IMG/VR virus record: IMGVR_UViG_3300022844_000007
Location: 1 to 53,891 of that record
Direction: 5' to 3' (one strand)
DNA length: 53,891 nucleotides
Source: a virus
Taxonomy: Duplodnaviria > Caudoviricetes
The translations under genes and the position numbers were made by a program. Under the pieces are notes generated by a model, which was not told the DNA's origin, made no database searches, and was given only the letters and a program-made list of their open reading frames with translations. This document shows, in pieces, positions 1,673 to 24,841 of the stretch. How positions within the stretch are numbered: position 1 is the stretch's first letter; each line of letters begins with the position of its first letter.

Positions 1673-1975
1673 ATGCCAGAACTTAAGATAACCCCCGCAC
1701 TCATCAAAATGACCGCTGGCGCTATCGCCACCGTGTTCATGGTGTTCCTGTTCATGGACTCGCGCCACTCTCACCCAGACGATCTCGAATGTTCCAGCGC
1801 CGACACCAACCAGCGGATACTCATGTCGGACTCGACCCGCTACGCGGAGATAAACAAATATTACACGGACAAACTGAAAGGGGGCGAGACGCTGTCGAAA
1901 GCTGAGACAAGCCGATTGGAACTTGTCCAACGGCAGCAACAACGCATTAACGAGATCCTAGTGGGGAAAGAGTAA
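1673..1975 (+). CDS. Membrane-anchored hypothetical protein
   Basis: N-terminal hydrophobic helix (AGAIATVFMVFLFM) followed by a helical soluble region; GAGGA RBS. Confidence 0.65.
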   Translation: MPELKITPALIKMTAGAIATVFMVFLFMDSRHSHPDDLECSSADTNQRILMSDSTRYAEINKYYTDKLKGGETLSKAETSRLELVQRQQQRINEILVGKE

Positions 1976-3691: not shown

Positions 3692-3891
3692 TCACCCAAC
3701 TGAAGTTTATCACCCAAGAGTTTGACTTGATGATGCGTGACGAGGACCGCAAGATGGGCTTCGGTCTGATGATGCGTGACCAGCATGGTGCCGAGATCAA
3801 CAAGGCGTTCCGCGTTTCGATGCACAACCCCGATATGACCTTGGTCGCTGAGTCACTGCGAGCGTTGGCTGACTGGGCCGAGAGACAATAA
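3688..3891 (+). CDS. Hypothetical protein
   Basis: GGAGG RBS; coupled to neighbours. Confidence 0.6.
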   Translation: MITQLKFITQEFDLMMRDEDRKMGFGLMMRDQHGAEINKAFRVSMHNPDMTLVAESLRALADWAERQ

Positions 3892-5714
3892 TGAGTGACC
3901 TGAACTGCACCAGATGCGAAGACCTGTACCCAGCGCCGTTGTTAAACGACGGCATCTGCGTTACTTGTCAGGTGCAGTTGGACAATGCCACGTTCCTGGC
4001 GCAGTACAAAGCCAGCGACCGAGAAACAAAACTCGTGCGCAACGAGTCGGAAGAGGAGATCGCGGATCGCAAGCGACGCCATGCGGATCGCCGCGAGAAG
4101 CTGAACAATCAAGCGACGCGCGACAAAAAACGGGTGCCCCGTACTTCGCGCAAGGCCCGTTACCTCGACAAGCTAGAAGCCGAGCAGCACCCAGAAGACG
4201 AGAAAGCCGATGCGGTAAAAGCCGAGGTCGCTGGTCGCGAGATGTCGCGCCGGTTCCTACTCCCTTTTATACAACGGTTTAACCCAGAGTATCGCGCCGG
4301 CTGGTTCCACAAGGACCTGACCCGTCGCCTTGAGAAATTCTCACAGGACGTCGCCGATGGCCTGTCGCCACGGCTTATGATCGAGGTGCCACCGCGCCAT
4401 GGTAAATCCGTTACCACAACGGTTAATTTCCCACCATGGCACTTAGGGCACCACCCGAACCACGAATTTATCATCTGCTCGTATGCGTCGCAGTTGGCCA
4501 TGACGTTCTCACGCGGCGTGCGTGAGATTATCCGCGACGAGGCATACCAGTCACTGTTCCCGAGAACTGAACTAAAAGCGGATACGACCAGCGCCGAGCA
4601 CTGGCGCACAACGAAAGGTGGCGGGTTACTCGCGGCAGGTGTCGGTGGACCCATGACGGGTAACGGTGCCCACATACTGGTGATCGATGACCCCGTAAAA
4701 AACGCGCAGGAAGCAGAGTCAGAAACCATTCGCGAGGGCCACGAACAGTGGTATAACAGCACTGCATACACACGACTAGCACCAGGAGGCGGTGTCCTGT
4801 TTATCATGACTCGTTGGCACCATGATGATTTAGCGGGGCGCTTGTTAAAGAAGATGGCCGAAGGAGGTGACCAGTGGGAGGTGGTGAGCTACCCAGCCGT
4901 TGCGATGGAGGACGAACCCTACCGGCGCAAAGGTGAAGCACTTCACCCAGAGCGATATGACGAGATCGCTCTGAATAGAATTCAAAAAGCTGTTGGCGAG
5001 AGGACTTGGTGGTCCCTGTACCAGCAGCAACCGACCCCCGATGAGGGATCGTATTTCATGCGCGACATGTTGCGGATGTACAAACAGGGTGCCGCCGCAG
5101 GGCCAGAGCACCCGCCACTTAGCGAGTTGCGTATTTACACGGCGTGGGACTTTGCCATTGGCCAGAAAGAACGCAACGACTACACGGTTGGCATTGTCGC
5201 CGGACTGGATCACTTGGATCGGATGTTCATCATCGATATGGTACGTGACCGTCTCGATGCCAATGGCATTGTCGAGCAGATCATAGCGGTACAAAAGAAA
5301 TACAAGCCGCTGCTACAGGGCTTTGAGCATGGCCAGATTGAAATGTCGATCGGCCCGTTCTTGCGTAAGCGCCAATACGAAGAGAAAATCTACATTAACG
5401 AGGAGATCCTGAAGACAGGTCGGCGCGATAAAGAAGCGCGTGCGCGCCCCATACAGGGCCGAATGAAGCAAGGTATGGTATTCTTCCCCGAAGACATGTG
5501 GTTTTCGGAGCCGTTCGTGAACGAACTACTAACGTTCCCGATGGGTAAACACGACGATATGGTAGATTCTTTGGCATGGCTAGGTCAGATGTTCGACGAC
5601 ATGGTTCGGTACAAATATCCCGCAGCGAGTCGTAAAGAAACAGGTTGGCGAGATAAGCTCGCGCAATCAGGGCGCTTATCGCGCCGATCCAACAGATCAT
5701 CAATGAGCGCATAG
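3891..5714 (+). CDS. terL: Terminase large subunit
   Basis: Walker A VPPRHGKS, Walker B IDDPVKN, IMTRWH, nuclease motifs AWDFA and HDDMVDSL; N-terminal CxxC..CxxC extension. Confidence 0.95.
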   Translation: MSDLNCTRCEDLYPAPLLNDGICVTCQVQLDNATFLAQYKASDRETKLVRNESEEEIADRKRRHADRREKLNNQATRDKKRVPRTSRKARYLDKLEAEQHPEDEKADAVKAEVAGREMSRRFLLPFIQRFNPEYRAGWFHKDLTRRLEKFSQDVADGLSPRLMIEVPPRHGKSVTTTVNFPPWHLGHHPNHEFIICSYASQLAMTFSRGVREIIRDEAYQSLFPRTELKADTTSAEHWRTTKGGGLLAAGVGGPMTGNGAHILVIDDPVKNAQEAESETIREGHEQWYNSTAYTRLAPGGGVLFIMTRWHHDDLAGRLLKKMAEGGDQWEVVSYPAVAMEDEPYRRKGEALHPERYDEIALNRIQKAVGERTWWSLYQQQPTPDEGSYFMRDMLRMYKQGAAAGPEHPPLSELRIYTAWDFAIGQKERNDYTVGIVAGLDHLDRMFIIDMVRDRLDANGIVEQIIAVQKKYKPLLQGFEHGQIEMSIGPFLRKRQYEEKIYINEEILKTGRRDKEARARPIQGRMKQGMVFFPEDMWFSEPFVNELLTFPMGKHDDMVDSLAWLGQMFDDMVRYKYPAASRKETGWRDKLAQSGRLSRRSNRSSMSA

Positions 5715-5716
5715 CA

Positions 5717-7855
5717 ATGGCCAGAGTATCCAAGCGAACAGTCGACAAGGTAGTGGCAGACGCCAATTTTGATGCGTTCAGGCGCTACCGCGATGTCGGC
5801 AAACACAAAGAATACGTTGCGAACGCGAAAAAGTGCAACGACTACTACGTCGGCAAACAGTGGGACGAAGCAGACAAAAACAAGCTAGAGGCAGCTGGCC
5901 GACCGGCACTGACCATTAACCTCACCATGGACAAAGTGAACACGGTCGCTGGCGAGCAGATCGCGAAGCGCGTCGATGTCACTTTCCTGCCGACAGGTGG
6001 CGCGGCCACTGAACAGGTGGCGCAGGACTTGAATCTAGTCTTCGAGAAGATTCTGGAAGAGAACCAATACGAGTGGCGCGAGTCACAGATGTTTCAAGAC
6101 GGGCTGATCGAGGAGCGAGGCTACCTTGACCTGCGCCTGGATTTTAGCGAGCACGCCGCCGGTGAGGCGCGGTTCACCGCCAAAGACAATCGCGATATTC
6201 TGATAGACCCCGACGCAAAAGAGTACGACCCTGATTCATGGTCGGGTTTTATCGAGACCCGACTCTACAGTCTGCAAGATATTGAGGATGAGTTCGGTCG
6301 CGCTAAACGCCGCGAGATAGAAAAAATCGTTGGGGCCGGCCAGTATTATGCTGACGACTCTGTTGTGTGGCAGACCGATACAACGTATGGCGGTGACCAG
6401 CAGGCTCGGGGAACAGCGTGGAATACATCAGGCAGCGATGCGGAGTCGCGCCGTGTTAAGTACGTCCGTGTTCTTTCTCGGCAGTATTACAAGATGCAAA
6501 TGGCGTGGCACTTTGTCGACCCTAAACTAGGTGACGCGAAGATGGTGCCTGCTGACTGGAGTGACGCGAAGCGTTCTGAGTTTGCCGCGGCTAACGGTTT
6601 ACTTGCTACGCAGAAACTCGCCAAGCGCATCCGTTGGACGGTATCAGCTGACGGCATCCTGCTACATGACGATTGGAGTCCATACCGGCACTTTACCATC
6701 ATTCCGTATTTCTGTTATTTCCGTCGCGGCAAGCCGATTGGCATGGTAACGAACCTGCTGTCGCCGCAGGACAACTTGAACAAGCTGGAGTCACAAACGC
6801 TGTCCGTGGTAAACAGCACGGCCAATAGCGGGTGGATTATCGAAGAAGATTCACTCGTCGACCTGACACCCGAAGAGCTTGAAGAACGCGGGGCCTCGAC
6901 GGGTCTCGTTGTCACCTATCGCAAGAACTCGACACCGCCAGCTAAGATCGACGCCAACTCAATCCCGAGTGGTTTGGATCGGATGAAACAGGGCGCGGCC
7001 CAGGCACTGAACGCTATATCAGGTGTCGATGACGTGCTTAACGGCACAGCGTCAGGCGAGTTCTCCGGTGTGGCACTCGACCATCAAGAAGGGCGCGGCC
7101 TACGAAAGTTGGCGATCCCACTCGATAATTTACGGCAGTCACGTTACATCATGGCCCGTAACTTATTGCACGTGATTAAAGATCACTACCGCGAGGAGCG
7201 CGTATTCCATGCGACCAAACGCGAGAGTGCCGGCGGCAACACAGAAGAGGTTGTACTTAATCGGCGTGATGCGGCTGGCCGTATCATCAACGATATTGCG
7301 TTAGGTGACTACTCCATCGTGATCGGCACGCGGCCTGCACGAGATACCTTCGAGGAGCGCCAGTTCACTGAAGTGCTGGAGCTGCGCAGTGTTGGTGTAG
7401 CGATACCGGATCACTGGGTTGTCCGTTACTCATCGCTTGAGAATAAGCGCGAGCTTGAGAAACTGATTGCAGATGCTACGGGTTACGGTGAGATGTCACC
7501 GGAAGATCAGGAAGCAGCACGAGTCAACGCAGAAATAGAGATGATGCGTGTTGAGGCTGAGCTGAAAGAGATCGAAGCGAAGATCCGCGATCTGAATGCT
7601 AAGGCACTGCTGAACGAAGCGAAAGCTGATGACCTCAGAGCAGGCGAGGGCAGTCAGGATATGCTCAAGCAGCGTCAAGAGCTGGAAGCGCAGTACGCAA
7701 CCAAAACGAAAGAACTCGATTTACGGCGCGAGTTACAAGCAGCGCAGGGTCAGCAGCAAGACGCTGACCGAAACCAGAAGAGTGGCATTGCATTATTGAA
7801 TGCCGGACTAGAGCAAGAAAAAACCCGCACGGCTAACCAAGGAGCAACATCGTGA
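5717..7855 (+). CDS. Portal protein (P22-like, long C-terminal coiled-coil barrel)
   Basis: YYVGKQW..GRPALTIN, DPDAKEYD, LLSPQDNLNK, SGVAL motifs; follows TerL. Confidence 0.9.
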   Translation: MARVSKRTVDKVVADANFDAFRRYRDVGKHKEYVANAKKCNDYYVGKQWDEADKNKLEAAGRPALTINLTMDKVNTVAGEQIAKRVDVTFLPTGGAATEQVAQDLNLVFEKILEENQYEWRESQMFQDGLIEERGYLDLRLDFSEHAAGEARFTAKDNRDILIDPDAKEYDPDSWSGFIETRLYSLQDIEDEFGRAKRREIEKIVGAGQYYADDSVVWQTDTTYGGDQQARGTAWNTSGSDAESRRVKYVRVLSRQYYKMQMAWHFVDPKLGDAKMVPADWSDAKRSEFAAANGLLATQKLAKRIRWTVSADGILLHDDWSPYRHFTIIPYFCYFRRGKPIGMVTNLLSPQDNLNKLESQTLSVVNSTANSGWIIEEDSLVDLTPEELEERGASTGLVVTYRKNSTPPAKIDANSIPSGLDRMKQGAAQALNAISGVDDVLNGTASGEFSGVALDHQEGRGLRKLAIPLDNLRQSRYIMARNLLHVIKDHYREERVFHATKRESAGGNTEEVVLNRRDAAGRIINDIALGDYSIVIGTRPARDTFEERQFTEVLELRSVGVAIPDHWVVRYSSLENKRELEKLIADATGYGEMSPEDQEAARVNAEIEMMRVEAELKEIEAKIRDLNAKALLNEAKADDLRAGEGSQDMLKQRQELEAQYATKTKELDLRRELQAAQGQQQDADRNQKSGIALLNAGLEQEKTRTANQGATS

Positions 7856-8805
7856 GTGAAATGAGCTTTTCACAAGAAGCAGAGGAATTGAGTGGGGATC
7901 GAGGTGACTTCATCGATATCGAAGACGCCCCGCAACCAGAAGGGGTTAACATCGTTGTCCCTGACCGCGAGGAAATTGAGGGAGAATTCGAAGAGGTTGC
8001 AGAGGTCGAAGAGGTTGCAGAAATCGCCCCTGAAGCTATCGTAGAGGAACTCGCACCGGTTGAGGAACCTATTGCTGATTCGACAACGGGAATTATGATT
8101 CCGAAGTCGCGGCTTGATGATGTACTGGCTAAGAACCGGCAGCTACAGAACCAACTCGACCAACGTGCTCCAGCAGCAGATCCTGCTAATCCTACTGCGC
8201 CCCCACTGGCGATGGATATCGACGACTCGTATGCCGCAGTACAGCAAGCCATCCTCAATGATGACGGCGAGAGCGGTAAGCAGGCGATGGTGAACTTATT
8301 GAACGCATCGAACGCGAGTCTGCGCCAAGAGATGACCGGCACGATTGAGTCGTCCCAGAAGCAGGTGCTCGAGTCGATGCAGTACGAGGCGACTTACACC
8401 GGCTTCAAAACGCAGTACGATGTACTCGATGAGAATAGCCCTAACTTCAGCGCTGATGTTGAGGATCAGATCCGCGAGGTGCGGGATGGCTACATCCTAC
8501 AAGACTACACGCCACGTGATGCTTTAACGAAAGCGGTGGGCTTGGTCATGAAGCCATTGCTGATGGGCAGCGCGGTTACACCGGCAGTTACACCGGCAGC
8601 AGTCACACGTAAAACGGGCAACGACATCTCGCATGTTGACGTGGCCGCAAAGGTAGCGACGGCTGCATCTCAGCCAGGAGAGCTGAACGGTGTAACTAAT
8701 GGCGCTACTGAGTACCAAGAACTGGACATGGACACCATGTCACAGAAGGATTTTGACGCTTTACCGATGTCCATTCAGCGGCGACTGCGCGGCGACGAAT
8801 TATAA
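7852..8805 (+). CDS. Capsid scaffolding protein
   Basis: Acidic; IPKSRLD motif; C-terminal MSQKDFDALP...RRLRGD; lies between portal and capsid. Confidence 0.75.
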   Translation: MSEMSFSQEAEELSGDRGDFIDIEDAPQPEGVNIVVPDREEIEGEFEEVAEVEEVAEIAPEAIVEELAPVEEPIADSTTGIMIPKSRLDDVLAKNRQLQNQLDQRAPAADPANPTAPPLAMDIDDSYAAVQQAILNDDGESGKQAMVNLLNASNASLRQEMTGTIESSQKQVLESMQYEATYTGFKTQYDVLDENSPNFSADVEDQIREVRDGYILQDYTPRDALTKAVGLVMKPLLMGSAVTPAVTPAAVTRKTGNDISHVDVAAKVATAASQPGELNGVTNGATEYQELDMDTMSQKDFDALPMSIQRRLRGDEL

Positions 8806-8908
8806 TTTTTGGGGGGTTCCAACATGGCTAATGCGATAACGGATTGGTTAACTGATGTTATTATGGACCGCGACTGGTGAGGTATCCCTATGCCTGATCG
8901 CCGGTAGT

Positions 8909-8939
8909 AGTTGATCCTGTAATGTGCTGGTGCTATATT
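8909..8939 (+). promoter_or_regulatory. Sigma70-like promoter for the capsid operon
   Basis: TTGATC (8911-8916), 17-nt spacer, extended -10 TG-n-TATATT (8934-8939). Confidence 0.65.
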
Positions 8940-8945
8940 CGATAG

Positions 8946-9100
8946 TACGTCCTTCCACACGAGAGTGGAACGTAGCCACAGCACGTTACAGTTGTGAACT
9001 CGGTAGCCCCCACGATACGGTGGCAGAGGTCGGCTCTCTCTAAAAGGTGTGATTTTTCGTAGGCTACGACACAGCCAAATTAGGACGTTAGATCGTCCAC
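8946..9100 (+). ncRNA. Structured 5' leader of the major capsid mRNA with repeated hairpins
   Basis: Five to six consecutive stem-loops, most displaying ACG(A/T)NA; see findings. Confidence 0.65.
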
Positions 9101-9135
9101 GGATTCTTACACTCATTTTTATTAGGAGAGCCAAA

Positions 9136-10284
9136 ATGGCTTTAACAAACTTTGGTAATTTAACGACTGAGCAGAAGGCGGTATGGTCACGTCAGCTTTG
9201 GTCACAGGTTCGTAACTACTCATTCCTTGAGAAGTTCATGGGCACAGACACTAACTCAGTGATTCAGCGAATCACAGAACTCACCCCAACTGAACGTGGC
9301 GACCGAGCCATTATCACGCTGGTTGCTGATATCACCGGAGACGGTGTTGTGGGCGACAAGACTTTGGAAGGTAACGAAGCGCCAATCAACGCTTATGATG
9401 CCACGATCAAAGTCGACCAGATGCGTAATGCTTCTCGGCACGAAGGCCGAATGGCTCACCAGAAGAGCGTTGTTACCTTCCGCGACCAAGCGAAAGACAA
9501 GATCGCCTACTGGCTTGCCGATCGACGTGATCAGCTGGCTTTCCTGACACTGTCAGGTGTGGCTTACACCAAGACCAATAGAGGCGGAACACGCGCTGTA
9601 TTGGGCGGCGGCGTTGCTGGTCTGAACTTCTCGGAACTCGAATACGCTGCCGATGTAGTTGCTCCGTCTGCTGGACGGCACTTCTACTGGGACGGCACAG
9701 GTGGTGGATTGCTGGCAGGTAATACTGCAGCAGTAGCAGCCGGTGACACCATCAGCTACGCGACTATCGTTCACTTGAAACAGATAGCGAAAGACACGGG
9801 GCTTCGCGGCGTGAAGCAAAAAGAAGGGATGGAAGAGCAGTTCCACCTGTTCATGACGCCGACCGATATGCGTAACCTTGAGTTGGACGCTGACTTCCTG
9901 GCCAACCAGCGTAATGCTGGCGCACGTGGCGAGAGCAACCGACTGTTCAAAGGCGGTTCTTCCGTCCATGTCAACGGCGTGTGGTGCCATGAGTATCGTC
10001 ACGTTTACAACACTGTCGACGGTACGTCAGGAACTGACATGTGGGGCGCAGGCGCTAACTTGGCCGGTTCACGGATGCTGTTCTGCGGTGCTCAAGCAAT
10101 GGGTATTGCCGATATCACCATGCCAAACTGGGAAGAAGAAGGTTTCGACTACCAGAACCAGCAAGGTGTTGCAGTTGACATGATTACCGGTATGCTGAAA
10201 CCACAGTTCAAGACACCATACATCGGTGGCGGCGCTGTGATTCAGGATCACGGCGTGATCTGTTGCGACGTTACGCACGCGTAA
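9136..10284 (+). CDS. Major capsid protein (N4-gp56/DUF4043 type)
   Basis: AGGAGA RBS before ATG 9136; MALTNFG..KAVWSR, GVVGDKTLEGNE, IKVDQMRNA, LFCGAQAMG, WEEE.FDY.NQ, QDHGVI. Confidence 0.92.
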   Translation: MALTNFGNLTTEQKAVWSRQLWSQVRNYSFLEKFMGTDTNSVIQRITELTPTERGDRAIITLVADITGDGVVGDKTLEGNEAPINAYDATIKVDQMRNASRHEGRMAHQKSVVTFRDQAKDKIAYWLADRRDQLAFLTLSGVAYTKTNRGGTRAVLGGGVAGLNFSELEYAADVVAPSAGRHFYWDGTGGGLLAGNTAAVAAGDTISYATIVHLKQIAKDTGLRGVKQKEGMEEQFHLFMTPTDMRNLELDADFLANQRNAGARGESNRLFKGGSSVHVNGVWCHEYRHVYNTVDGTSGTDMWGAGANLAGSRMLFCGAQAMGIADITMPNWEEEGFDYQNQQGVAVDMITGMLKPQFKTPYIGGGAVIQDHGVICCDVTHA

Positions 10285-10290
10285 TAACAC

Positions 10291-10318
10291 TCCCCCCTGT
10301 TCGCAGGGGGGATTCTTT
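10291..10318 (+). terminator. Rho-independent terminator after the capsid gene
   Basis: TCCCCCCTG-TTCG-CAGGGGGGA followed by TTCTTT. Confidence 0.85.
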
Positions 10319-16303: not shown

Positions 16304-19300
16304 ATGTCAGAGCAAGGATCAGGTCTTGATTTATCAGGTGTGCCACTACGATCTTCTAGGCCAAGTAGGACACCTGCACCGACCCCCACTAATCGCAGCC
16401 TGTCTTCGGGGCCGACACTCCCGCGTGTACAGGGGTGGAATCCAGGACAGACAATGAGGGGACCGAAGCCGGAACCAACTACTACGGCGGGGTCGCTAGC
16501 ACGTGGCGCGGATAACATGCAGGCGACATGGTATGCAACGGGGCAAGTTTTCTCGCAGGCGTTATCGGATACGTTTGATAGCCCTGATATGGAAGGCATG
16601 TCTGAATATTTCGGTGAGAATGCTGAACGCAATCTACTTGAGGCGGCACAAAACCCCGCCTCAATCCCCACGTGGGAGGACGCTACTGACTGGGAGAAGA
16701 AGTTCACGTGGTTCGCGGAAGCGGTGTTTGAAAACGTGCCTAATATGGCGACGACGTTTGCAACGGGCGGTGTGTTCGCGGCACTGAGTAAAACGGGTGC
16801 ACTGGCAGGGGCTGGTAAGCAGCTGTTTTCTAAGATGCCTTTGAAGGCCGCTCAAAAATTCCAATCCGCTATACCTGCGATAGAGCAGAAAGTGGGCAGT
16901 ACGACAGGTGCGTTTGCAAAGGGCATGATCGCGGGTACGTATCCGCAGGTTACGGGTGAGACACAACTCGAATTCAACGAGCGTGGCATCAGGGCACCAG
17001 CGACTGTCATTGCTTCAGGTATACCCCAGACGGTCGTAGAATTTGCGACGGGTATCGAAGCTAAAATGATGAAGGCGATTACTAGCGTCGGAGTCCCCAA
17101 GAAAGTATTTGATAACGTGTTCGCTCGGCTTACTGCAAGTGGGGCACTGACGGCAATAGGTGAAGGCACCGAGGAAGCAATCCAACAGACGATGCAGTAC
17201 GTTGCCGTAGCAATGCACGACCCGTCGTTTGACTGGGATGACCCCGAAGCTATTGAGAACATAAAAGAGTCTGCACGGAAGGGTGCGGCAGCAGGTGCCG
17301 GTACTACGGTCGCGATGGATGTGACTCACGAGGCGCTTACGCTAGGCCAAGGCACTTTTCAAAAACTTAACGCTAAGAAAAATCCGGTTAACCCCGATGA
17401 CCCTGACGACATCATCGGTTTGCATGCGCCTATCGATCCTAGCGAAGGCCCGATCGATGCCTCACCAGAGATATTCAAAAAAGATATCGATGCGATGTTC
17501 ACCAACCAACTCGAAGTCATGGCACTCGCCAATAACTGGACCAAGCGCCAAGAGAATGGCGCACCGCTGTTCGGGGGCAAGCCAGAAGACCAGATGACAG
17601 GTGCGCAAGTTCTCGAGCGATTTAACAAGGTGCTTAGTGGCAATCAGCGCGTGGACGCGGATGTGGCAGTTGGCATTATGGCAGGGATGGAGAACCTTCG
17701 ATCCCCAGTAGAAGGCGTCGAGATTCCTGGAAACTCTATCAGTGGATCTATAGCACGCGGCTATTCTGATGCGGCTGACATCATCATCGGTGCACTGGGC
17801 CGCGGTAAAGCGGGAGAGCAGACGCTCACAGAAGAGATGCTCGCAGCGCAGGGAGACACTGTCAGCGATACGAACGAGCAAGAATCGGACAAGGTCTCCG
17901 ATCAGGTACAGCGAAGTGTCGCACGCGGGATAGCAAAGACTATCAATCTCGCTGCCATACGCCGGCGCATCGCAGGGGAGAATGCGAGCGACAACCCCGC
18001 TGCAATTAGAGAGGCAGTTATCGAGGCTATAGGCTCCCCAAGAGCAGCTCGGGCAGTTAAGAAAAATACCGCGCTCGCTTTGGAAGCGAGAGCAGCGGAG
18101 ATGGTGTTTGACGTTGCCGCAGCAAAGATGGCTTTCGATCGTGCGAAGCGAGAGGGTACAGCTGATGCTGAAACACTCATGGCTGAATATGCAGATAAGC
18201 TCAAAAAGCAGCAGATGTATGCTGATCTGACAAAAGTGGCTCCAATTCCAGCAGGGCGAGAACTACCCGAGACAACACGCCGTGCCGATAGTCAGATAGA
18301 ATCCGTGGTGAAGGGCGAGAAGAAAGCAGCCGTGTTCACTCCAGGCACGACGCCCTCATCTGAAGTAGTATCGGGGCTTCCCGATAACGTAGAGTCAGGG
18401 TGGATAGCAGGTAACCAGTGGTTCAGCTCCGACGAAGAATACACGGCGATGCTTAAAGCAACTGATGGTAACAACCCTACTGAGGTGCAAGAGACAATAA
18501 AGACAGTGCTGGATAAACCAGCCGTTAAGTCAGCTACTGACAACCGTGCAGTAGTCATTCGGGATGCTGAAAACAACGTAATGTCTGAGACGACGTTCCA
18601 CTCATCCGAGGAGGAATTGTTTTGGCGAAGTGCGCAGTCGCATGTACCCAATGGTGGCACTGTCGAAGTCACATCGATTGAGCAGGCTGTTCAGGTCAAG
18701 CAAGAAGAACTCGCGCAGCAGGAAGTAGAGCAGTCGGCGGATGGCCCACCAGCAGCCAATGACTTTCTGGAAGACGGCGAGCTACCTCGCGCCAAACGAC
18801 CACAGTCCATAACCGATCAAATAGAAGCTCTAAAAAACAGGGTGGCGCAAGAACAGAACGCGCCAACAAATACATCACTCGAAGAGCAGGCTGGTGTCAC
18901 GCCCGAGCTGGCGCAAGCACTACGCGCAGCGAATGTGACTAACAAGCAAGACCTCGCGGACATGTCAGTGTTCGAGATGATGGATGTTGCCGAAGATAAC
19001 CCAAACATTCCGATGACAGTTGGTTTGGCGGGGAACATTATTATGGCCGCTCGCAGAACAGCGGCGGAGCAAACAGCACTTCGCAACGCCCTTGTCGAGG
19101 CAGGTGTTAATAGAATTGACAGTGGTCAAGTGCCTGACACTCTGCAACTCGATGCGATGTACGAAGCAGTGGCAAGCCGAGAGATCGGCATCGTCCAAGA
19201 ATTCGGCCCCGAGCAGACGAGAAATATGATCGCCGATATGGTTGAGCACGCGATAGAAACCAAGCAACCATTTAGATTGAAGACGTTCTTCTCGCAGCCT

Positions 19301-22300
19301 GTAGCAGATATGGGCATGGAGCAGGCAGTGTTCAGCTCACCCCTGAGTGATGAAGTTACCGAGGTGACAGAAGAAGATATCAACACAACGGAAGAAACAC
19401 AGTGGACCATGTTCGAGTCTTACGGCGTTGAAAAACCCGCTGATTACGGCGTTAATGTGTCTGACAACGCGGCACTCTCAACGCACAATCGCAGTGACGA
19501 GGCGACGCTTGAGATACTAGCGGGTCAAGATCGCAACAATAAGCGCAAGTTAAAAAACGCTTGGAACTATCCTGGCTTCCGTATCTTCGGCCACAAGACA
19601 GATGGCGCGGATAACGTCGTTGGTTGGAAGCAGCGTGATAAAAACACGGGTAAGGGCATCGAGAAAAAGATGCGCACACTCCAAGAGAACGACCATATCA
19701 ACCAGTACAGTATTGTTTTCAGTCCGACTAAAGGTGTGTACTACATAAAGCAGTGGCTACCACTTGCTGGCATACCTACAGATGTTTCTATCCGCCCCGA
19801 CTATGCGAGCGATGCGCTGTACGAGTCGCAGGTCATCGACCGCATTCTTGAGCCTGAGTTACAGTACAGTTATTTCCCACTCGATAAGAATGGGAAAACG
19901 ATCAAGGATGTAGAAAAGAGCAAAGCGGAAAAGAAGTTTGTGCCAGTCTCCGTCAAAGCAACAGACGTAACCGAGAGTTTAAATCCTGGCACGCTATTCA
20001 AGGCGGAACAAGAAGCCATTGCCCTGTCACCCATTGGCAAAATTAAAACCGAAGAGAACCCTGTTCAGGGTCAGTATTTCAGATCTGACCAAGGGGAGTT
20101 CGGCACTGACCACACAACAAAAATGCAGTTCCGCGCATTGGGCTTCAGGCGGATAGAGAGAGATGGGTCCTACAAACAAGCCAAACAGAAAGATGCCAAG
20201 GGTAAAGTCGTACTCGATGGGAACGGGCAATATGTCTGGGAAGACGAGCTTCAATACTACCGCATGGACAGAGTCCTGCGCGTGTACGAGAAGGTCGTCG
20301 ACGCCAATTACGCTAACGCACCCACTATGGGGCGTGTGGAAAAGTATGACTTAGCGATGGCCCACGCCTTGGCCGACTTCTATGGTCGGGGCTATGTCGC
20401 GCAGGTGCAGGAAGGTGGCACCCAGTTTAGTAAACTGCCTAGCTATAAAGTTGGCCAACGTAGTATGACCTACGCAGGTATTGGTACGAGTGAGGAAAAA
20501 GGAGTGAAAATCCCTCCGAAAGTTAAAGCGGCGATAACCAAAGCGGCAGAAGCACTTAGCAAACGCGGGTACACACTACTGTCTGGTAACGCTACTGGTG
20601 CGGATCAAGCATTCGAGAAGGGCGCAGGTAAGAACAAACGGATATTCAAAGCTGACCAAGCGACTAAACAGACGAGAACTATCGCGCAGGAGATTCATCC
20701 TAATCCAGGGGCGCTGAGTGGTTACGCGCTGAATCTCATGGCACGCAACACGAATCAGGTGTTCGGCGCTGACCTCAATCAGCCCGTTGATTTCGTATTG
20801 GTGTGGACAGAAGACGGTGCTGAGACAGCAGCAGATCGCCAATATAAAACTGGCGGCTCTGGCCAAGCGATTGAGATGGCGGCACGTAAAGGTATCCCCG
20901 TCATTAACATGGCAAATACAGGGTGGCAGGCACGGCTCGTGGAGGTGCTCGACGGAAACTACGTGCCTATGACCGATGGCACACCGCAGAGCGATGTGGC
21001 GCTTCGGGCAGAACAACGCTCGCAGGAAACCGGCTTTCCCGTTAACCCTTTTACGGATGACCGATCTGGCACCCGAGGTGACGAGGGCTTTGCACTACCG
21101 GATGATCTTACGGTCGCTAGTGTTGCAGGTAAGGTAAGGGTCATGGGTAAGGACCTAAACAGCATGCGAGCACGGCTGAGTAATAACCTTGTCGAACTCG
21201 GGAATGTTCAGCGCCGGCTATACCAACTTCGCGAAGAGGGGCAACAAGTAAACGCGGTGTTAATGCACCCTAACGATTCCAACATCGTTGATGATTGGCT
21301 CAGTCTGTATATGACCGATGAGCAACTTCAAGCATCAGCGCGACGTCATAAGGGGTATGACGAAGTCGCACTTACAGAAGAGGAAGCGGCTAATTTCTGG
21401 CAGTTTGAGGATAAGCGCAGGGATCTTCTTATTGAAGCAGCGGAAAGTAGACGCGCGGATATCTTCGGTGAGGACGGCCAAGAGAATGGTGAACTGCATG
21501 AGCTACTAGCGAAAAGACAGCAGCTGATGTCAAAGGTGAAGCAGCATGATTTTTCGATGCAGCCTGAGTTCGGCGAGAACTACCGCGGCGATGAGGATAC
21601 AGATGAGCAGTTCATCCGGCATGATGTTATCCAAGACCATTTCGACCAAGCTGAAAGTAGAAGCACTGATACGCTGTCGTATGATGAGCGTGAATACGCC
21701 GAATCGAAGAACGATCCTGGGCTACACGGCGCAGCGCGAACTTTACGGACAGCTCACGCGTCAACCGTGGTAAAACAGTTTTGGCAAACGTATGGGGACT
21801 TCGAAGGCACCGAAAAAAATTTGTTGGCTGGTGCTATTAAAGCGACCGGCATAAAAGCCAATGTTGTGATGGTGTCACTTGGCACAACACCTGACCTGTC
21901 GGTAGTGGCAGGCAGCAGTGACTATGCCAAGGCAGTTGCTGACATGGAAGCTGACCCAACAATCCCTGCGAAACTGGTCGGTGCAAACGACACTGCGATC
22001 ATCATTGTCCGGCCAGCAACTACGCCAGCAATGAAGCAGGCACGCCTCATACACATTGGCCATGAGCTGGGGCACTTGGTGCTACGTACTTATAGCCAAT
22101 CGATTGAGGCTAACCCTACACTTAAAGCGCAAATATTCGCTGGTAAACCTGCGAAAGCTGACGCGCATGAGTGGTTCGCTGACAAGTTCGCCGGCTGGCT
22201 GTTCGCTCAAGTAGGCACGAGGGGTAGAAATAACCAACGCGTGGCTGACGTAACGCCAGAAGCTGAGACTGCTTTCCGCGCTGTTAGAAACATACTTCAG

Positions 22301-24841
22301 TCAGTATGGAGTGCTGTTAAGCGAATACTCCCTAAACGATTCGCCCGTAACTATGCGTTCGAAACCGCCTTCATCAATCCGCTAGTTGCTAAAATGCGAG
22401 CGCCAATACTGCGCGATGACATCGCTAAGTTACAACGGACTGACACGATGCGCCAACTCGAAGAGCAACTCAGTGAAGTGCAGTTGCTCCGCAGCGAAGG
22501 CCCCGAGCGAGGCTCAGATAGTCAGGTAGCGTTTTTAAAAAGAATGCGCCCCGACCTAAAAACTTTACCTCCCTATGGCCAGCGGGATGCGCTACTCGAA
22601 GAGATCGAGATGGCGCTTGTAACGCAGGTCAATGCGGAACGTATCGAAAGCCACAAACGCTATTCCGAAGAAAAGCCGCTCAAGCACGCAGAACTCATGG
22701 CGCTTGAACAGGAGCTACGCCCCGAGATCCAGGCATTCAATGCACGCGCTGAGTTGGGTATCTTTACGGATAACCTAACGATACCAACTCTGGCGCAGAA
22801 CAACACTGTGCTCAGAGCGGGAATCAAAGCGGCCTCTACGGTAGAGCGCGTGATAGCGCCTGTGTGGAAGACCGGTAACCAAATGCTTCGTAGTAAAGCA
22901 TTAAACGCTGATGACATCGCTAACATGTTCTTCTCCCCTTCGCAGTCTCGTTCAGCACAACAGTTTGGTGATGGCGTACTGAACCGCCAGTTTCCAGAAA
23001 TGGAACGGTGGGCAAGTCTGTTTAACGCAGGGTTGCCTAAAGATGTAACGCGTCGTAACGAGGTTATCGACTGGGCGCAGAAAGAACTACCTATCGAGCA
23101 AGCACCAGAAGAGTATCGCGCTGAGCTAGTCGAATTTCGGAAGGTCAGTAATCAGTTCCGTGACTATCTAAACAAAAACATGGGTGGCACCATCGGGCTT
23201 ATCCCGAACCATTTTCCCCGCAGCCACTCACTGAAAGAGATATCAGAACGCGGCGAGCGGTGGAAGTCGATCATTATCGCAGCGGCTGCAGCATCCGGCA
23301 TGGAGATAACACCGACGGTTGCTGAACGATTACGCCAAGAGATTCTCACGGACGATGGTGTGACTGAATACAGTCAGGCCATTTCCCCCACTGGGTTTTA
23401 CTCGCGGCAATCACGAGGACTGGATATCCCTAACCTCAGTGTTGCGTTACAGCAAGCCGGTTTTCTTGCAGACCCAGAAGCGTCACTACAGGCTTACATT
23501 ACCAGTGGCACGAAGCGAGCACTGTGGGAGCAGAAATTTGGTGAGCATAGACCATGGCAGGAAGTATACGATGCGGCCATTAAGAACAGTGAAAGTAACG
23601 ACTACGTAGAGTCGCTACGGCAGATGAGAATATGGCACGATGAACAAGCGGCAGAGGGGGAGGACCTCCAACTGTGGGATGCGTCATCGAAACTGAATCG
23701 TGCGATTGCTGCGCATCCTGATGAGAATCAGCCGCGCATCAAGAAGATTGTCGAAGGGTATCAAGGTCGTCTCGGATTAGATATTAGTCCTGAGTGGCAG
23801 AAGGCCCAGAGCTATATGATGGCATTGCAGTTCACCAATCTGCTAGCGTTCTCAACACTCGCGTCACTGCCAGACTTCGGTAACATTATGATCCGATCCA
23901 AGTCGCTGTTTGACCCACTGGCAGCATGGTCACGCACGGGGTCATGGGCGGAAGCATCTGAGAAAGCGCACCTGTTAGGTATCATCGGGGATCGCATGGA
24001 AAGCCAGTCGCTGATCATGAGTGACGGTCACCGTTTCATAGAGCCGAACGTACAGAAGGGCATCGACGCTTTCTTCAAGTACACGGGGCTGATGGCGTTT
24101 ACCAAGATGACACGTATCGCGGCTATGACTGCCGGCGAACATTTCCTTGAGACGCATGCCCAAAAGGCACTCGCTGGTAATGAGGAGTCTGCCGGTTTCT
24201 TAGCGGAGCTGAATGTCACGGCGCAGCAGGTCCAGCATTGGGTAGCCAATGAGAAACCCTACGCACCAACGGCAACCGACACACAATTTACGCCGGTCCA
24301 CCACGCACTGCAAAAGTTCGTGGATGAGGCGATACTCAGGCCCAACGCTGGAGTGCGCCCCACATGGGCGAATGACCACCGGCTGGCGTTGGTGTGGCAA
24401 CTGAAATCTTTCTTCTACGCTTTCGGCTCCATCGTCGTGGGTGGGATATGGCGCGACATCCAGTCTCGCCAAGGCGCACGCAAAGCGATACCGCCCCTGA
24501 TCGCAGCCGTGGCATTGATGCCATTGGCCGCACTGGGCTTGATGCTGCGTAACAGTGTTAAAGCCGGTATCTACGCGCTGCAGGGCGATGACGATTGGGA
24601 GCCTGAGACAGAGCGTATGAACCAAGGCCAGTATATGATTGAACTAATCGATCGTACCGGTGCGCCAGGAATCTTTTCAATCGGTAAGAACATGCTGAGC
24701 GCCAGTGATTATGGCAGCTCACCACTGGTTGCTGCTATGGGACCCACTGCGCAGTGGTTCGAAATGTGGTTAGATCCAGACACGACGCTAACCGAGGCTG
24801 CAGTACGCGGCCTTCCCTTCCAGCAGTTAATCGCACAGTAA
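16304..24841 (+). CDS. Giant internal virion/ejection protein, polyvalent (NusA-AR-like HhH, SLOG, HExxH metallopeptidase motifs)
   Basis: 2845 aa; N-terminal G/A-rich membrane-type segments and EG.EEA.QQ motif; C-terminal RP.WA...LVWQLKSFFYAF region typical of large podovirus ejection proteins; embedded domains described in findings. Confidence 0.8.
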   Translation: MSEQGSGLDLSGVPLRSSRPSRTPAPTPTNRSLSSGPTLPRVQGWNPGQTMRGPKPEPTTTAGSLARGADNMQATWYATGQVFSQALSDTFDSPDMEGMSEYFGENAERNLLEAAQNPASIPTWEDATDWEKKFTWFAEAVFENVPNMATTFATGGVFAALSKTGALAGAGKQLFSKMPLKAAQKFQSAIPAIEQKVGSTTGAFAKGMIAGTYPQVTGETQLEFNERGIRAPATVIASGIPQTVVEFATGIEAKMMKAITSVGVPKKVFDNVFARLTASGALTAIGEGTEEAIQQTMQYVAVAMHDPSFDWDDPEAIENIKESARKGAAAGAGTTVAMDVTHEALTLGQGTFQKLNAKKNPVNPDDPDDIIGLHAPIDPSEGPIDASPEIFKKDIDAMFTNQLEVMALANNWTKRQENGAPLFGGKPEDQMTGAQVLERFNKVLSGNQRVDADVAVGIMAGMENLRSPVEGVEIPGNSISGSIARGYSDAADIIIGALGRGKAGEQTLTEEMLAAQGDTVSDTNEQESDKVSDQVQRSVARGIAKTINLAAIRRRIAGENASDNPAAIREAVIEAIGSPRAARAVKKNTALALEARAAEMVFDVAAAKMAFDRAKREGTADAETLMAEYADKLKKQQMYADLTKVAPIPAGRELPETTRRADSQIESVVKGEKKAAVFTPGTTPSSEVVSGLPDNVESGWIAGNQWFSSDEEYTAMLKATDGNNPTEVQETIKTVLDKPAVKSATDNRAVVIRDAENNVMSETTFHSSEEELFWRSAQSHVPNGGTVEVTSIEQAVQVKQEELAQQEVEQSADGPPAANDFLEDGELPRAKRPQSITDQIEALKNRVAQEQNAPTNTSLEEQAGVTPELAQALRAANVTNKQDLADMSVFEMMDVAEDNPNIPMTVGLAGNIIMAARRTAAEQTALRNALVEAGVNRIDSGQVPDTLQLDAMYEAVASREIGIVQEFGPEQTRNMIADMVEHAIETKQPFRLKTFFSQPVADMGMEQAVFSSPLSDEVTEVTEEDINTTEETQWTMFESYGVEKPADYGVNVSDNAALSTHNRSDEATLEILAGQDRNNKRKLKNAWNYPGFRIFGHKTDGADNVVGWKQRDKNTGKGIEKKMRTLQENDHINQYSIVFSPTKGVYYIKQWLPLAGIPTDVSIRPDYASDALYESQVIDRILEPELQYSYFPLDKNGKTIKDVEKSKAEKKFVPVSVKATDVTESLNPGTLFKAEQEAIALSPIGKIKTEENPVQGQYFRSDQGEFGTDHTTKMQFRALGFRRIERDGSYKQAKQKDAKGKVVLDGNGQYVWEDELQYYRMDRVLRVYEKVVDANYANAPTMGRVEKYDLAMAHALADFYGRGYVAQVQEGGTQFSKLPSYKVGQRSMTYAGIGTSEEKGVKIPPKVKAAITKAAEALSKRGYTLLSGNATGADQAFEKGAGKNKRIFKADQATKQTRTIAQEIHPNPGALSGYALNLMARNTNQVFGADLNQPVDFVLVWTEDGAETAADRQYKTGGSGQAIEMAARKGIPVINMANTGWQARLVEVLDGNYVPMTDGTPQSDVALRAEQRSQETGFPVNPFTDDRSGTRGDEGFALPDDLTVASVAGKVRVMGKDLNSMRARLSNNLVELGNVQRRLYQLREEGQQVNAVLMHPNDSNIVDDWLSLYMTDEQLQASARRHKGYDEVALTEEEAANFWQFEDKRRDLLIEAAESRRADIFGEDGQENGELHELLAKRQQLMSKVKQHDFSMQPEFGENYRGDEDTDEQFIRHDVIQDHFDQAESRSTDTLSYDEREYAESKNDPGLHGAARTLRTAHASTVVKQFWQTYGDFEGTEKNLLAGAIKATGIKANVVMVSLGTTPDLSVVAGSSDYAKAVADMEADPTIPAKLVGANDTAIIIVRPATTPAMKQARLIHIGHELGHLVLRTYSQSIEANPTLKAQIFAGKPAKADAHEWFADKFAGWLFAQVGTRGRNNQRVADVTPEAETAFRAVRNILQSVWSAVKRILPKRFARNYAFETAFINPLVAKMRAPILRDDIAKLQRTDTMRQLEEQLSEVQLLRSEGPERGSDSQVAFLKRMRPDLKTLPPYGQRDALLEEIEMALVTQVNAERIESHKRYSEEKPLKHAELMALEQELRPEIQAFNARAELGIFTDNLTIPTLAQNNTVLRAGIKAASTVERVIAPVWKTGNQMLRSKALNADDIANMFFSPSQSRSAQQFGDGVLNRQFPEMERWASLFNAGLPKDVTRRNEVIDWAQKELPIEQAPEEYRAELVEFRKVSNQFRDYLNKNMGGTIGLIPNHFPRSHSLKEISERGERWKSIIIAAAAASGMEITPTVAERLRQEILTDDGVTEYSQAISPTGFYSRQSRGLDIPNLSVALQQAGFLADPEASLQAYITSGTKRALWEQKFGEHRPWQEVYDAAIKNSESNDYVESLRQMRIWHDEQAAEGEDLQLWDASSKLNRAIAAHPDENQPRIKKIVEGYQGRLGLDISPEWQKAQSYMMALQFTNLLAFSTLASLPDFGNIMIRSKSLFDPLAAWSRTGSWAEASEKAHLLGIIGDRMESQSLIMSDGHRFIEPNVQKGIDAFFKYTGLMAFTKMTRIAAMTAGEHFLETHAQKALAGNEESAGFLAELNVTAQQVQHWVANEKPYAPTATDTQFTPVHHALQKFVDEAILRPNAGVRPTWANDHRLALVWQLKSFFYAFGSIVVGGIWRDIQSRQGARKAIPPLIAAVALMPLAALGLMLRNSVKAGIYALQGDDDWEPETERMNQGQYMIELIDRTGAPGIFSIGKNMLSASDYGSSPLVAAMGPTAQWFEMWLDPDTTLTEAAVRGLPFQQLIAQ

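Follow-up and report, generated by a model that had tools for sequence, protein, structure and literature searches.

The capsid protein is the most abundant product that a tailed phage must make, and the region upstream of its gene raises the question of how the amount is set. To our knowledge, specific post-transcriptional control of the capsid genes of double-stranded DNA (dsDNA) phages is little documented, and a literature search found no paper on such control. The locus considered here is the major capsid gene of the phage record IMGVR_UViG_3300022844_000007 of IMG/VR, whose 53,891 nt (estimated completeness, 86%) are referred to as the window. A gap of 330 nt separates its scaffold-like gene from the capsid gene and contains a sigma70-like promoter and a leader of about 190 nt. 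A preliminary description, made from the letters of the window, had proposed that this leader is built of repeated hairpins that display an ACG(A/U)NA loop, and that it serves either as a protein-binding platform tuning capsid translation or as a stand-alone structural RNA. Comparison with relatives shows a structured leader that is conserved, folds as the sense strand and is specific to the region preceding capsid genes. We hold this structural part, a conserved folded leader, with high confidence. The leader probably controls the amount of capsid protein made.

A conserved folded leader upstream of the capsid gene

The six hairpins of the preliminary description are all present, with energies of -2.6 to -6.6 kcal/mol when folded singly, and they are not a product of chance. 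Some details needed correction. The hairpin at 9025-9037 exists and admits two registers because of a CTCTCT run; homology favors the register in which 9025-9028 pairs with 9036-9039 around a 7-nt loop. The hairpin at 9006-9024 had been called bulged, and what it contains is a C.U mismatch without a bulge. The one at 9083-9098 is also found, but its ACGTTA straddles stem and loop, hence is not loop-displayed. Three stems were said to be preceded by (C/G)GTAG, and [CG]GTAG does occur at 8971, 9002 and 9058; it is explained as the 5' strand of the pseudoknot helix described below plus its linker.

The ACG[AT]NA motif is found 5 times in the 196-nt leader (25.5/kb) versus 112 times in the whole window (2.08/kb), and is thus about 12-fold denser in the leader. 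The fold of the leader beats 198 of 200 dinucleotide shuffles (z = -2.73). Four leader hairpins have ACG at the start of the loop: three of those previously named, and an overlapping alternative that pairs GTGG with CCAC across two of the named ones. Among 5000 dinucleotide shuffles, at least four such hairpins appeared in 2 and at least three in 26, figures that are flattering because the motif was defined post hoc; comparative data are the real test. Hairpins with an RCGANA loop number 14 on the plus strand of the window (2 in the leader) and 12 on the minus strand, and cluster in the leader only.

Profile-based scans with the capsid protein yielded 160 loci. The three closest loci compared (L002, L003 and L082) encode capsids 64-67% identical to that of the window; capsid homologues number about 3,581 in all, and relatives at 80-81% identity exist among them (P0002 and P0003) and lie outside the leader comparison. 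The leader DNA of the window shows almost no plain sequence similarity to that of the relatives, against two of which nhmmer gave E = 0.0026 and 0.094. The three closest loci share the order of the elements. The promoter comes first, then hairpins 1 to 3, with RCGAYA in the loop of hairpin 1 and RCGAUA in that of hairpin 3; next are a short hairpin (H4) followed by UAAA(A)GG, and a long-range helix (P5) that holds hairpin 5, with an ACGAYA loop, and ends with its 3' strand about 10 nt before the Shine-Dalgarno sequence. The stems of hairpin 1 are wholly different (TTCCAC in the window; GCAGGT, ACCGGT and GCTAG in the others), and the homologues of unit 3 have perfect or near-perfect stems of different sequence under their RCGAUA loops. 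Variable stems under a kept loop motif, as initially described, are therefore borne out in the three loci.

The window and these loci were aligned by sequence with MAFFT. For H1, H4 and P5 together, 95.3% of the cells are paired and 8 of 16 pairs have changed on both sides; none of 500 shuffles reached any of five measures for these helices, and registers slid by 1-3 columns were 22-55% paired. The stem of unit 1 presents double changes at 6/6 pairs, both in this alignment and in another of 12 sequences. In the latter, 89.9% of the cells are paired and 0/500 shuffles match either the score or the percentage, although the alignment leans towards structure because it was fitted to the model. All four pairs of H4 are kept in the four sequences, one of them via a change from A-U to C-G, and P5 includes a change from C-G to U-A. 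In other subfamilies the single unit, likewise placed just inside P5, aligns with unit 5, whose three core stem pairs covary in 16 sequences. When 16 diverse 3' domains were analyzed with MAFFT and RNAalifold, only these three pairs were recovered, and the registers of the other helices shift between subfamilies. The covariation sought in relatives was thus found, and so was a conserved structured capsid mRNA leader 3' of the promoter-like site. Not every element is shared. Where unit 2 stands, the relatives carry a hairpin with other loop sequences, so that a pseudoknot reading of unit 2 derives from the window only; hairpin H6 showed no conservation, as relatives have unrelated hairpins or nothing at its place.

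The promoter has 9 of 12 hexamer matches plus the TG in a consensus scan. It is the sole promoter-like site on the plus strand between the scaffold-like and capsid genes, and a promoter-like site is aligned at the equivalent position in the three closest loci. No terminator-like site was seen between the leader and the capsid start within the 330-nt gap, and in all four close relatives the last helix lies about 10 nt 5' of the Shine-Dalgarno sequence. For these reasons a stand-alone structural RNA is unlikely. Coding alternatives were discarded as well, as the leaders of relatives have stops in all six frames: an antisense open reading frame (ORF) at 8775-9134 (119 aa) is not open in relatives, and an N-terminal extension of the capsid or in-frame upstream ORF from GTG 9049 meets stops in L002, L003 and L082. 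The coordinates of the elements are collected in Table 1.

Table 1. Elements of the capsid leader and neighboring features in the window
Feature	Position	Strand	Description
Large terminase	3891-5714		
Portal	5717-7855		
Scaffold-position protein	7852-8805		317 aa
Sigma70-like promoter	8911-8939	+	-35 at 8911-8916; TG at 8931-8932; extended -10 hexamer at 8934-8939
Unit 1	8947-8970	+	Stem 8953-8958 with 8965-8970; loop ACGAGA 8959-8964
Unit 1, flank-loop pairing	8948-8950	+	CGU can pair with ACG 8959-8961; 3 bp
Unit 2	8971-8996	+	Stem 8977-8982 with 8991-8996, one G.U; 8-nt loop
Unit 2, flank-loop pairing	8971-8973	+	CGU complementary to ACG 8983-8985
Unit 3	9000-9024	+	Stem 9006-9011 with 9019-9024, C9009.U9021 mismatch; loop ACGAUAC 9012-9018
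Unit 3, flank-loop pairing	9000-9003	+	UCGG; UCG pairs with CGA 9013-9015; fourth position G/A
Hairpin H4	9025-9039	+	9025-9028 with 9036-9039; 7-nt loop containing UCGG
A-rich linker	9041-9045	+	
P5 long-range helix, 5' strand	9046/9047-9052	+	9047-9052 pairs with 9107-9112
Unit 5 (canonical)	9057-9076	+	Stem 9062-9065 with 9073-9076; loop ACGACAC
Unit 5, flank-loop pairing	9057-9060	+	UCGU pairs with ACGA 9066-9069; full 4 bp
Hairpin H6	9083-9098	+	-6.5 kcal/mol; variable insert within P5
P5 long-range helix, 3' strand	9107-9113	+	
Shine-Dalgarno AGGAG	9124-9128	+	
Capsid start codon	9136-9138	+	
Major capsid gene	9136-10284	+	N4-gp56 family PF13252; phrog_334 major head protein, E = 1.3e-79
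Terminator-like hairpin	10291-10312	+	9 pairs (7 G-C), T-rich tail; directly 3' of the capsid gene

The specificity of the unit was examined with a strict descriptor in 151 distinct loci. In the 300 nt upstream of capsid starts, 58 strict units were found in 43,573 nt (1.33/kb), versus 12 in 788,904 nt elsewhere on the same strand (0.015/kb) and 9 in 832,477 nt of the opposite strand. Unrelated viral and bacterial DNA contained 9 in 1,647,488 nt (0.0055/kb). The enrichment before this capsid gene family is therefore roughly 90-240-fold. Looser hairpins numbered 96 in 49,080 nt upstream (a length to which one locus with a truncated match added 2,930 nt) versus 104 in 840,915 nt elsewhere. Internal G.U pairs occur in 25 of 72 stems, and A.C in 5 of 56; since G.U is tolerated and A.C is not, the folded molecule is the sense RNA. 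Within the window, unit 5 is the only leader unit that satisfies the strict descriptor. The other strict hit, at 24325-24338, has a 4-bp stem and is taken as chance (0.4 expected per shuffled window), and the scan of the minus strand returned zero units.

Units of about 25-30 nt, located 39-182 nt (269 in one case) before the start codon, are carried by 78 of 130 distinct leaders (58 with one, 16 with two and 4 with three), and the subfamily of the window is the richest in them. A covariance model built from the 4 sequences identified L190 as a clear further member (45.4 bits, E = 1.4e-9), together with weak matches in 10 loci (L109, L143, L159, L161, L144, L123, L155, L150, L240 and L007), all of them on the sense strand and directly upstream of the capsid start. 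In other subfamilies, too, UAAA comes after a hairpin, and a long-range helix stops 18-30 nt short of the start codon; H4-related hairpins with UAAA behind them are found family-wide. The leaders of AP1 and phiA008 show family-level features only. A scan of viral contigs for the core made of H4, linker and P5 detected no new contig. The 17 hits obtained in genome contigs were rejected: their number approximates the chance estimate for 18 fixed bases, and the covariance model matched none.

A sister subfamily (L004-L012, L016, L021 and similar loci, with capsids at 55-58%) has an equally long leader that lacks RCGAYA units. It has conserved modules of its own: UAAAAC comes after a 5' hairpin formed by UUCGUCC...GGACG, UAAAAAG after a GGAG/CUCC hairpin whose loop is UCGAC, and a long helix, in which strands of the type GCGAAAC and GUUUCGU pair, lies immediately ahead of the ribosome site. 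The two leader families are probably homologous and differ in their inserts.

A predicted H-type pseudoknot in the repeated unit

If the loop is kept while its stem drifts, one may ask what the loop pairs with. Judging from sequence, each RCGAYA hairpin is half of a predicted H-type pseudoknot, in which a UCGN located 1-5 nt upstream pairs with N'CGA of the loop. RNAalifold chose this flank-loop pairing unprompted for unit 3. In the 300 nt before capsid starts, 96 unique hairpins with an NCGAYA loop were picked regardless of what precedes them. The first base of the loop and the fourth base of the nearest UCGN form A-U in 14 cases, G-C in 28, C-G in 5, U-A in 2 and G.U in 2. Non-pairs amount to 16 (A/G 10, G/A 4, C/C 1 and U/U 1), and A opposite C was found zero times. 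The 29 units without UCG in the flank include many that keep CGC opposite GCG. The association of A or G with U or C is significant (Fisher p = 1.6e-8), and all four Watson-Crick types are represented in the covariation of the fourth pair. Across the 12 sequences aligned for unit 1, this flank-loop pair is UA in 7 sequences, CG in 2, UG in 1 and other in 2.

The geometry fits a classical H-type pseudoknot: a 4-bp helix, a linker of 1-5 nt, a stem of 4-9 bp and 2-4 nt crossing back, the latter being YA plus a few bases. The sequence of the UCGN:N'CGA helix is kept while the stems drift. With two helices in pseudoknot topology, supported by covariation, the unit belongs to this class in the structural sense, not as a member of a homologous family.

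Ribosome-site access and possible readings of the leader

How could such a leader influence the capsid gene? In the minimum-energy fold, the Shine-Dalgarno region (9125-9132) pairs with the 3' strand of H4 and its neighbors (9032-9039), which are complementary to it, and P5 is extended via the A-rich linker (9041-9045 with 9117-9121). The probability that the ribosome site is unpaired is 0.16-0.33 in the window, L002 and L003, and 0.62 in L082. The predicted cost of opening the capsid initiation region, 14.1 kcal/mol, is the highest of 28 gene starts (range 0.8-14.1). Such a cost is unexpected for the gene expected to be most translated. Because H4, which conservation supports, excludes the pairing of the ribosome site, two states exist on paper.

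The reading that we favor, albeit slightly more in doubt than convinced, is that of a cis-regulatory leader whose units are recognized by a factor and which sets ribosome-site access, mRNA stability or both. According to this reading, transcription from a host-type promoter would yield a capsid mRNA whose untranslated 5' leader spans positions ~8946-9135 and has a modular fold in the order unit 1, units 2 and 3, H4, the A-rich linker, and P5 enclosing unit 5. The kept UCGN:N'CGA helix, with the YA bases that cross it, would be the feature read by a trans-acting factor, perhaps a late or assembly protein of the phage or an RNA-binding protein of the host. Depending on whether the units are occupied or folded, the balance would tip between a state with H4 formed and the ribosome site free and another with the 3' strand of H4 on the ribosome site, and this balance would set capsid translation. 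The 5'-terminal unit, in turn, would shield the mRNA end from decay. The existence of a reader molecule is argued, not proven, from the persistence of the 4-bp helix and YA at several sites and in different subfamilies despite drift everywhere else. The conserved fold apart, we infer where transcription starts, that a switch and a factor exist, and in which direction control runs.

The earlier proposal of a protein-binding platform is hence supported in part: the leader is structured and conserved and its motif is specific to capsid leaders, but conservation of the loop can be explained without a protein. Indeed, several facts weigh against a factor-read leader. Four of the six loop bases are paired intramolecularly, so that loop conservation by itself requires no protein, and the search itself imposes in part the unvarying CGA core seen in the wider family, the unbiased evidence being the 12 of 12 units with CGA in the 4-sequence alignment. 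In the window, the full 4-bp pseudoknot helix is found only in unit 5, units 1 and 3 having 3 bp, and unit 2 is not common to the relatives. Units are absent from 52 of the 130 leaders, and only 3 of 21 carry one in the class with 55-60% capsid identity; the cultured relative KPP25 has a diverged leader with no canonical unit. A descriptor combining H4 and P5 matches 42 of 132 leaders versus 11-23 of 132 controls, a modest specificity because of which the family-wide core is described here rather than proven. As the units lie clear of the ribosome site, any effect on initiation must be indirect. A structure that enforces the conserved helices reaches -56.3 kcal/mol, 9 kcal/mol above the minimum of -65.3, under an energy model that ignores pseudoknots and cannot score the three or four pseudoknot helices. 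The transcription start, near 8945-8947, is a prediction. As for candidate factors, no CsrA-family gene was found in the window (PF02599, whole record, E up to 10), and neither the scaffold-like protein nor the post-capsid proteins matched a Pfam family.

One alternative dispenses with the factor. The compact fold might keep RNase E, RppH and Rho away from the 5' end and the long untranslated region and provide a favorable ribosome-site geometry, the outcome being a long-lived, heavily translated capsid mRNA. In the window as in relatives, only a few nt separate the start of unit 1 from the predicted 5' end, the capsid gene has a promoter and a terminator of its own, as would suit a bulk-expressed message, and intramolecular pairing largely explains why the loop is conserved. 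An architectural helix would nevertheless be free to drift, yet UCGN:N'CGA-YA recurs at 3-4 positions per leader and across subfamilies; furthermore, the ribosome site is predicted to be sequestered, not open. We regard a factor-independent leader as unlikely, though well worth keeping in mind.

Rather improbable, in our estimate, is a more specific proposal: that the mini-pseudoknots are operators for a phage assembly protein, be it unassembled capsid or the scaffold, whose conserved basic C-terminus is encoded just upstream of the leader. If true, capsid translation would be tied to assembly status via the switch between H4 and the ribosome site, and the leader would provide family-wide autogenous feedback on a major capsid gene of a dsDNA phage through a previously undescribed RNA module.

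The location of the leader, directly after a promoter and at the head of the structural gene block, with a strong terminator-like hairpin after the capsid gene, is also what one would expect of a processive antitermination or anti-Rho element akin to the put RNAs of HK022, which would permit read-through past the capsid terminator into more than 20 kb of structural genes. We consider this very unlikely, as the fixed short distance between the last helix and the Shine-Dalgarno sequence points to translation and the number of units varies from 0 to 3. Unlikelier still, by a little, is a riboswitch-like sensor in which each mini-pseudoknot binds a small ligand or ion and switches ribosome-site access. 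Small H-type pseudoknots in tandem with a kept core, together with an alternative anti-Shine-Dalgarno pairing, are reminiscent of such a device, and the loops somewhat resemble the ACGR loops of the guanidine-II riboswitch (PMC5558903). Against it, no Rfam riboswitch model matched (E up to 10), the loops have 6-10 nt and are not tetraloops, copy number changes from 0 to 3 between relatives, and a capsid gene offers no metabolic rationale. Finally, the N4-family capsid and the presence of a 2845-aa ORF of unassigned family bring to mind the DNA hairpin promoters of N4-type phages, which have a short stem and a 3-nt loop and are read by the virion RNA polymerase, but a DNA-level element of that kind, an operator repeat or a replication or packaging site is hardly credible in view of overlapping inverted repeats with pseudoknot topology, loops of 6-10 nt, tolerance of G.U over A.C, strand specificity, and units placed 3' of a sigma70-like promoter.

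Known systems and the surroundings of the leader

Returning to the leader as a putative factor-read element, we compared it with known RNAs. Window positions 8500-9500 gave 0 matches to the 4227 families of Rfam (E up to 10), 12 related loci gave 0 at the gathering score, and ARAGORN found 0 tRNA or tmRNA genes in the whole window. Several known systems resemble the leader by description. In the E. coli thrS and ribosomal-protein operators, the 30S subunit faces competition from a protein bound to repeated or mimic hairpins and pseudoknots; these operators share with our case a structured leader with repeated hairpins or pseudoknots, but here no tRNA or rRNA mimicry was found (by ARAGORN and Rfam) and the units lie farther from the start codon. 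The guanidine-II riboswitch (mini-ykkC) also has tandem hairpins upstream of the ribosome site, with free stems and a kept ACG-containing loop whose CG forms Watson-Crick pairs outside its own hairpin. It has ACGR tetraloops engaged in loop-loop kissing and controls genes for guanidine carboxylase and SugE-like proteins (PMC5558903). The units studied here have RCGAYA loops of 6-10 nt, with no tetraloop form seen, their partner is the 5' flank of the same hairpin, the downstream gene encodes the major capsid protein, and the Rfam covariance model is unmatched.

A phage precedent is the leader of T4 gene 32, where, according to the main text of a 2023 virus-wide screen for structured RNAs, an H-type pseudoknot nucleates binding of a protein that represses translation, and for which no Rfam model exists (PMC10690425). 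In both cases a phage 5' leader places an H-type pseudoknot some tens of nt ahead of the ribosome site. The T4 leader, however, has a single pseudoknot, belongs to another gene class and is bound by the single-strand-binding product of the gene itself, whereas 1-4 repeated units are found here; the likeness is one of description, and no homology is claimed. The same screen proposed five candidates that precede genes of another capsid family, PHA00201; they resemble the present leader in that a conserved structure lies consistently upstream of one phage gene family; its main text makes no mention of DUF4043, PF13252 or N4-like phages, although the supplements may list the motif (PMC10690425). 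Subscription journals and supplementary tables apart, no description of the motif was found in the literature. Because Rfam gives no match, the guanidine-II riboswitch fails as an equivalent, and both that main text and the literature are silent, we rate the leader as an undescribed variant within a known kind, the structured, pseudoknotted mRNA leader.

CsrA/Rsm platforms deserve separate comment. Like them, the leader has several hairpins with one short loop motif and includes the ribosome site. CsrA targets canonically carry GGA, both in their hairpin loops and at the ribosome site, while the loops conserved here hold CGA, engaged in the predicted pseudoknot. Control of the CsrA type was rejected for the phage of the window, a record estimated as 86% complete, as no CsrA-family gene was found in it. 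Bcep22-like phages are a different case: a CsrA-like gene lies directly before the capsid gene in LASTA, PEp14 and CSP3, and one small gene intervenes in GP4. These are Klebsiella LASTA, Erwinia PEp14, Ralstonia GP4 and Burkholderia CSP3 (L167-L170), with a capsid of the N4-gp56 family, and three of the four (PEp14, GP4 and CSP3) have GGA at or near the ribosome site of their short capsid leaders. The CsrA-like gene has been treated as a moron without an assigned role (PMC9144972). It may instead be a dedicated regulator of capsid translation, and its position before the capsid gene of distant relatives provides a lineage precedent for dedicated post-transcriptional control of that gene.

The leader is a compact module, defined by covariation and present in at least 78 distinct leaders of uncultured phages. 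It offers a testable handle on capsid output in a large group of podophages related to Pseudomonas phage KPP25, and could enter RNA databases as a new family. Should the unit have a partner, it would be a small orthogonal RNA tag; if there is none, it would be a new example of a sequence-constrained pseudoknot acting as an mRNA end-cap.

As regards the phage itself, its nearest cultured capsid relatives are those of the Pseudomonas KPP25 group (50.7% identity). DNA searches of a phage collection, both near and distant, and a single-protein scan of viral contigs returned no match, and no near-identical public genome was found besides metagenome runs that contain identical sequence. None of the runs listed as containing the stretch is an RNA data set. 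Four metagenome runs contain short contig pieces identical to the window, from 9103 onward only. Between 61 and 94% of the sampled words of window positions 8700-9500 are present in runs X8-X12, salt lake metagenomes from five studies of one year that may represent a single campaign. More structural genes are found 3' of the capsid gene, and the replication module is encoded on the opposite strand. The 2845-aa ORF (16304-24841) lies in the structural block and had no Pfam match (E up to 0.01).

Observations on the promoter region of the relatives can be added. Their capsid promoters have a near-perfect palindrome over the -10, of the type ATTAGC-NN-TGCTAATAT, at ~2788-2806 in L002, ~1143-1161 in L003, ~2785-2803 in L082, and 8811-8827(-) and ~1706-1724(-) in L190; in L190, the second copy precedes another gene about 7 kb upstream. 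The palindrome might serve as an operator or represent a shared late-promoter motif. A scan for it returned mostly chance matches but yielded L190 and L240. The window is without the palindrome, as even its best matches, with 3 mismatches, are at chance level. An 18-codon ORF (8825-8881) lies between the scaffold-like gene and the capsid promoter of the window; the relatives leave no room for a counterpart, since their scaffold genes stop too near their promoters. Lastly, the scaffold-position proteins of the window and its relatives, the former of which has no PHROG or Pfam match over the remainder of its length, have a conserved basic motif at their C-terminus, LP-S/T-x-x-R-x-RGD, with 2-3 residues after it.

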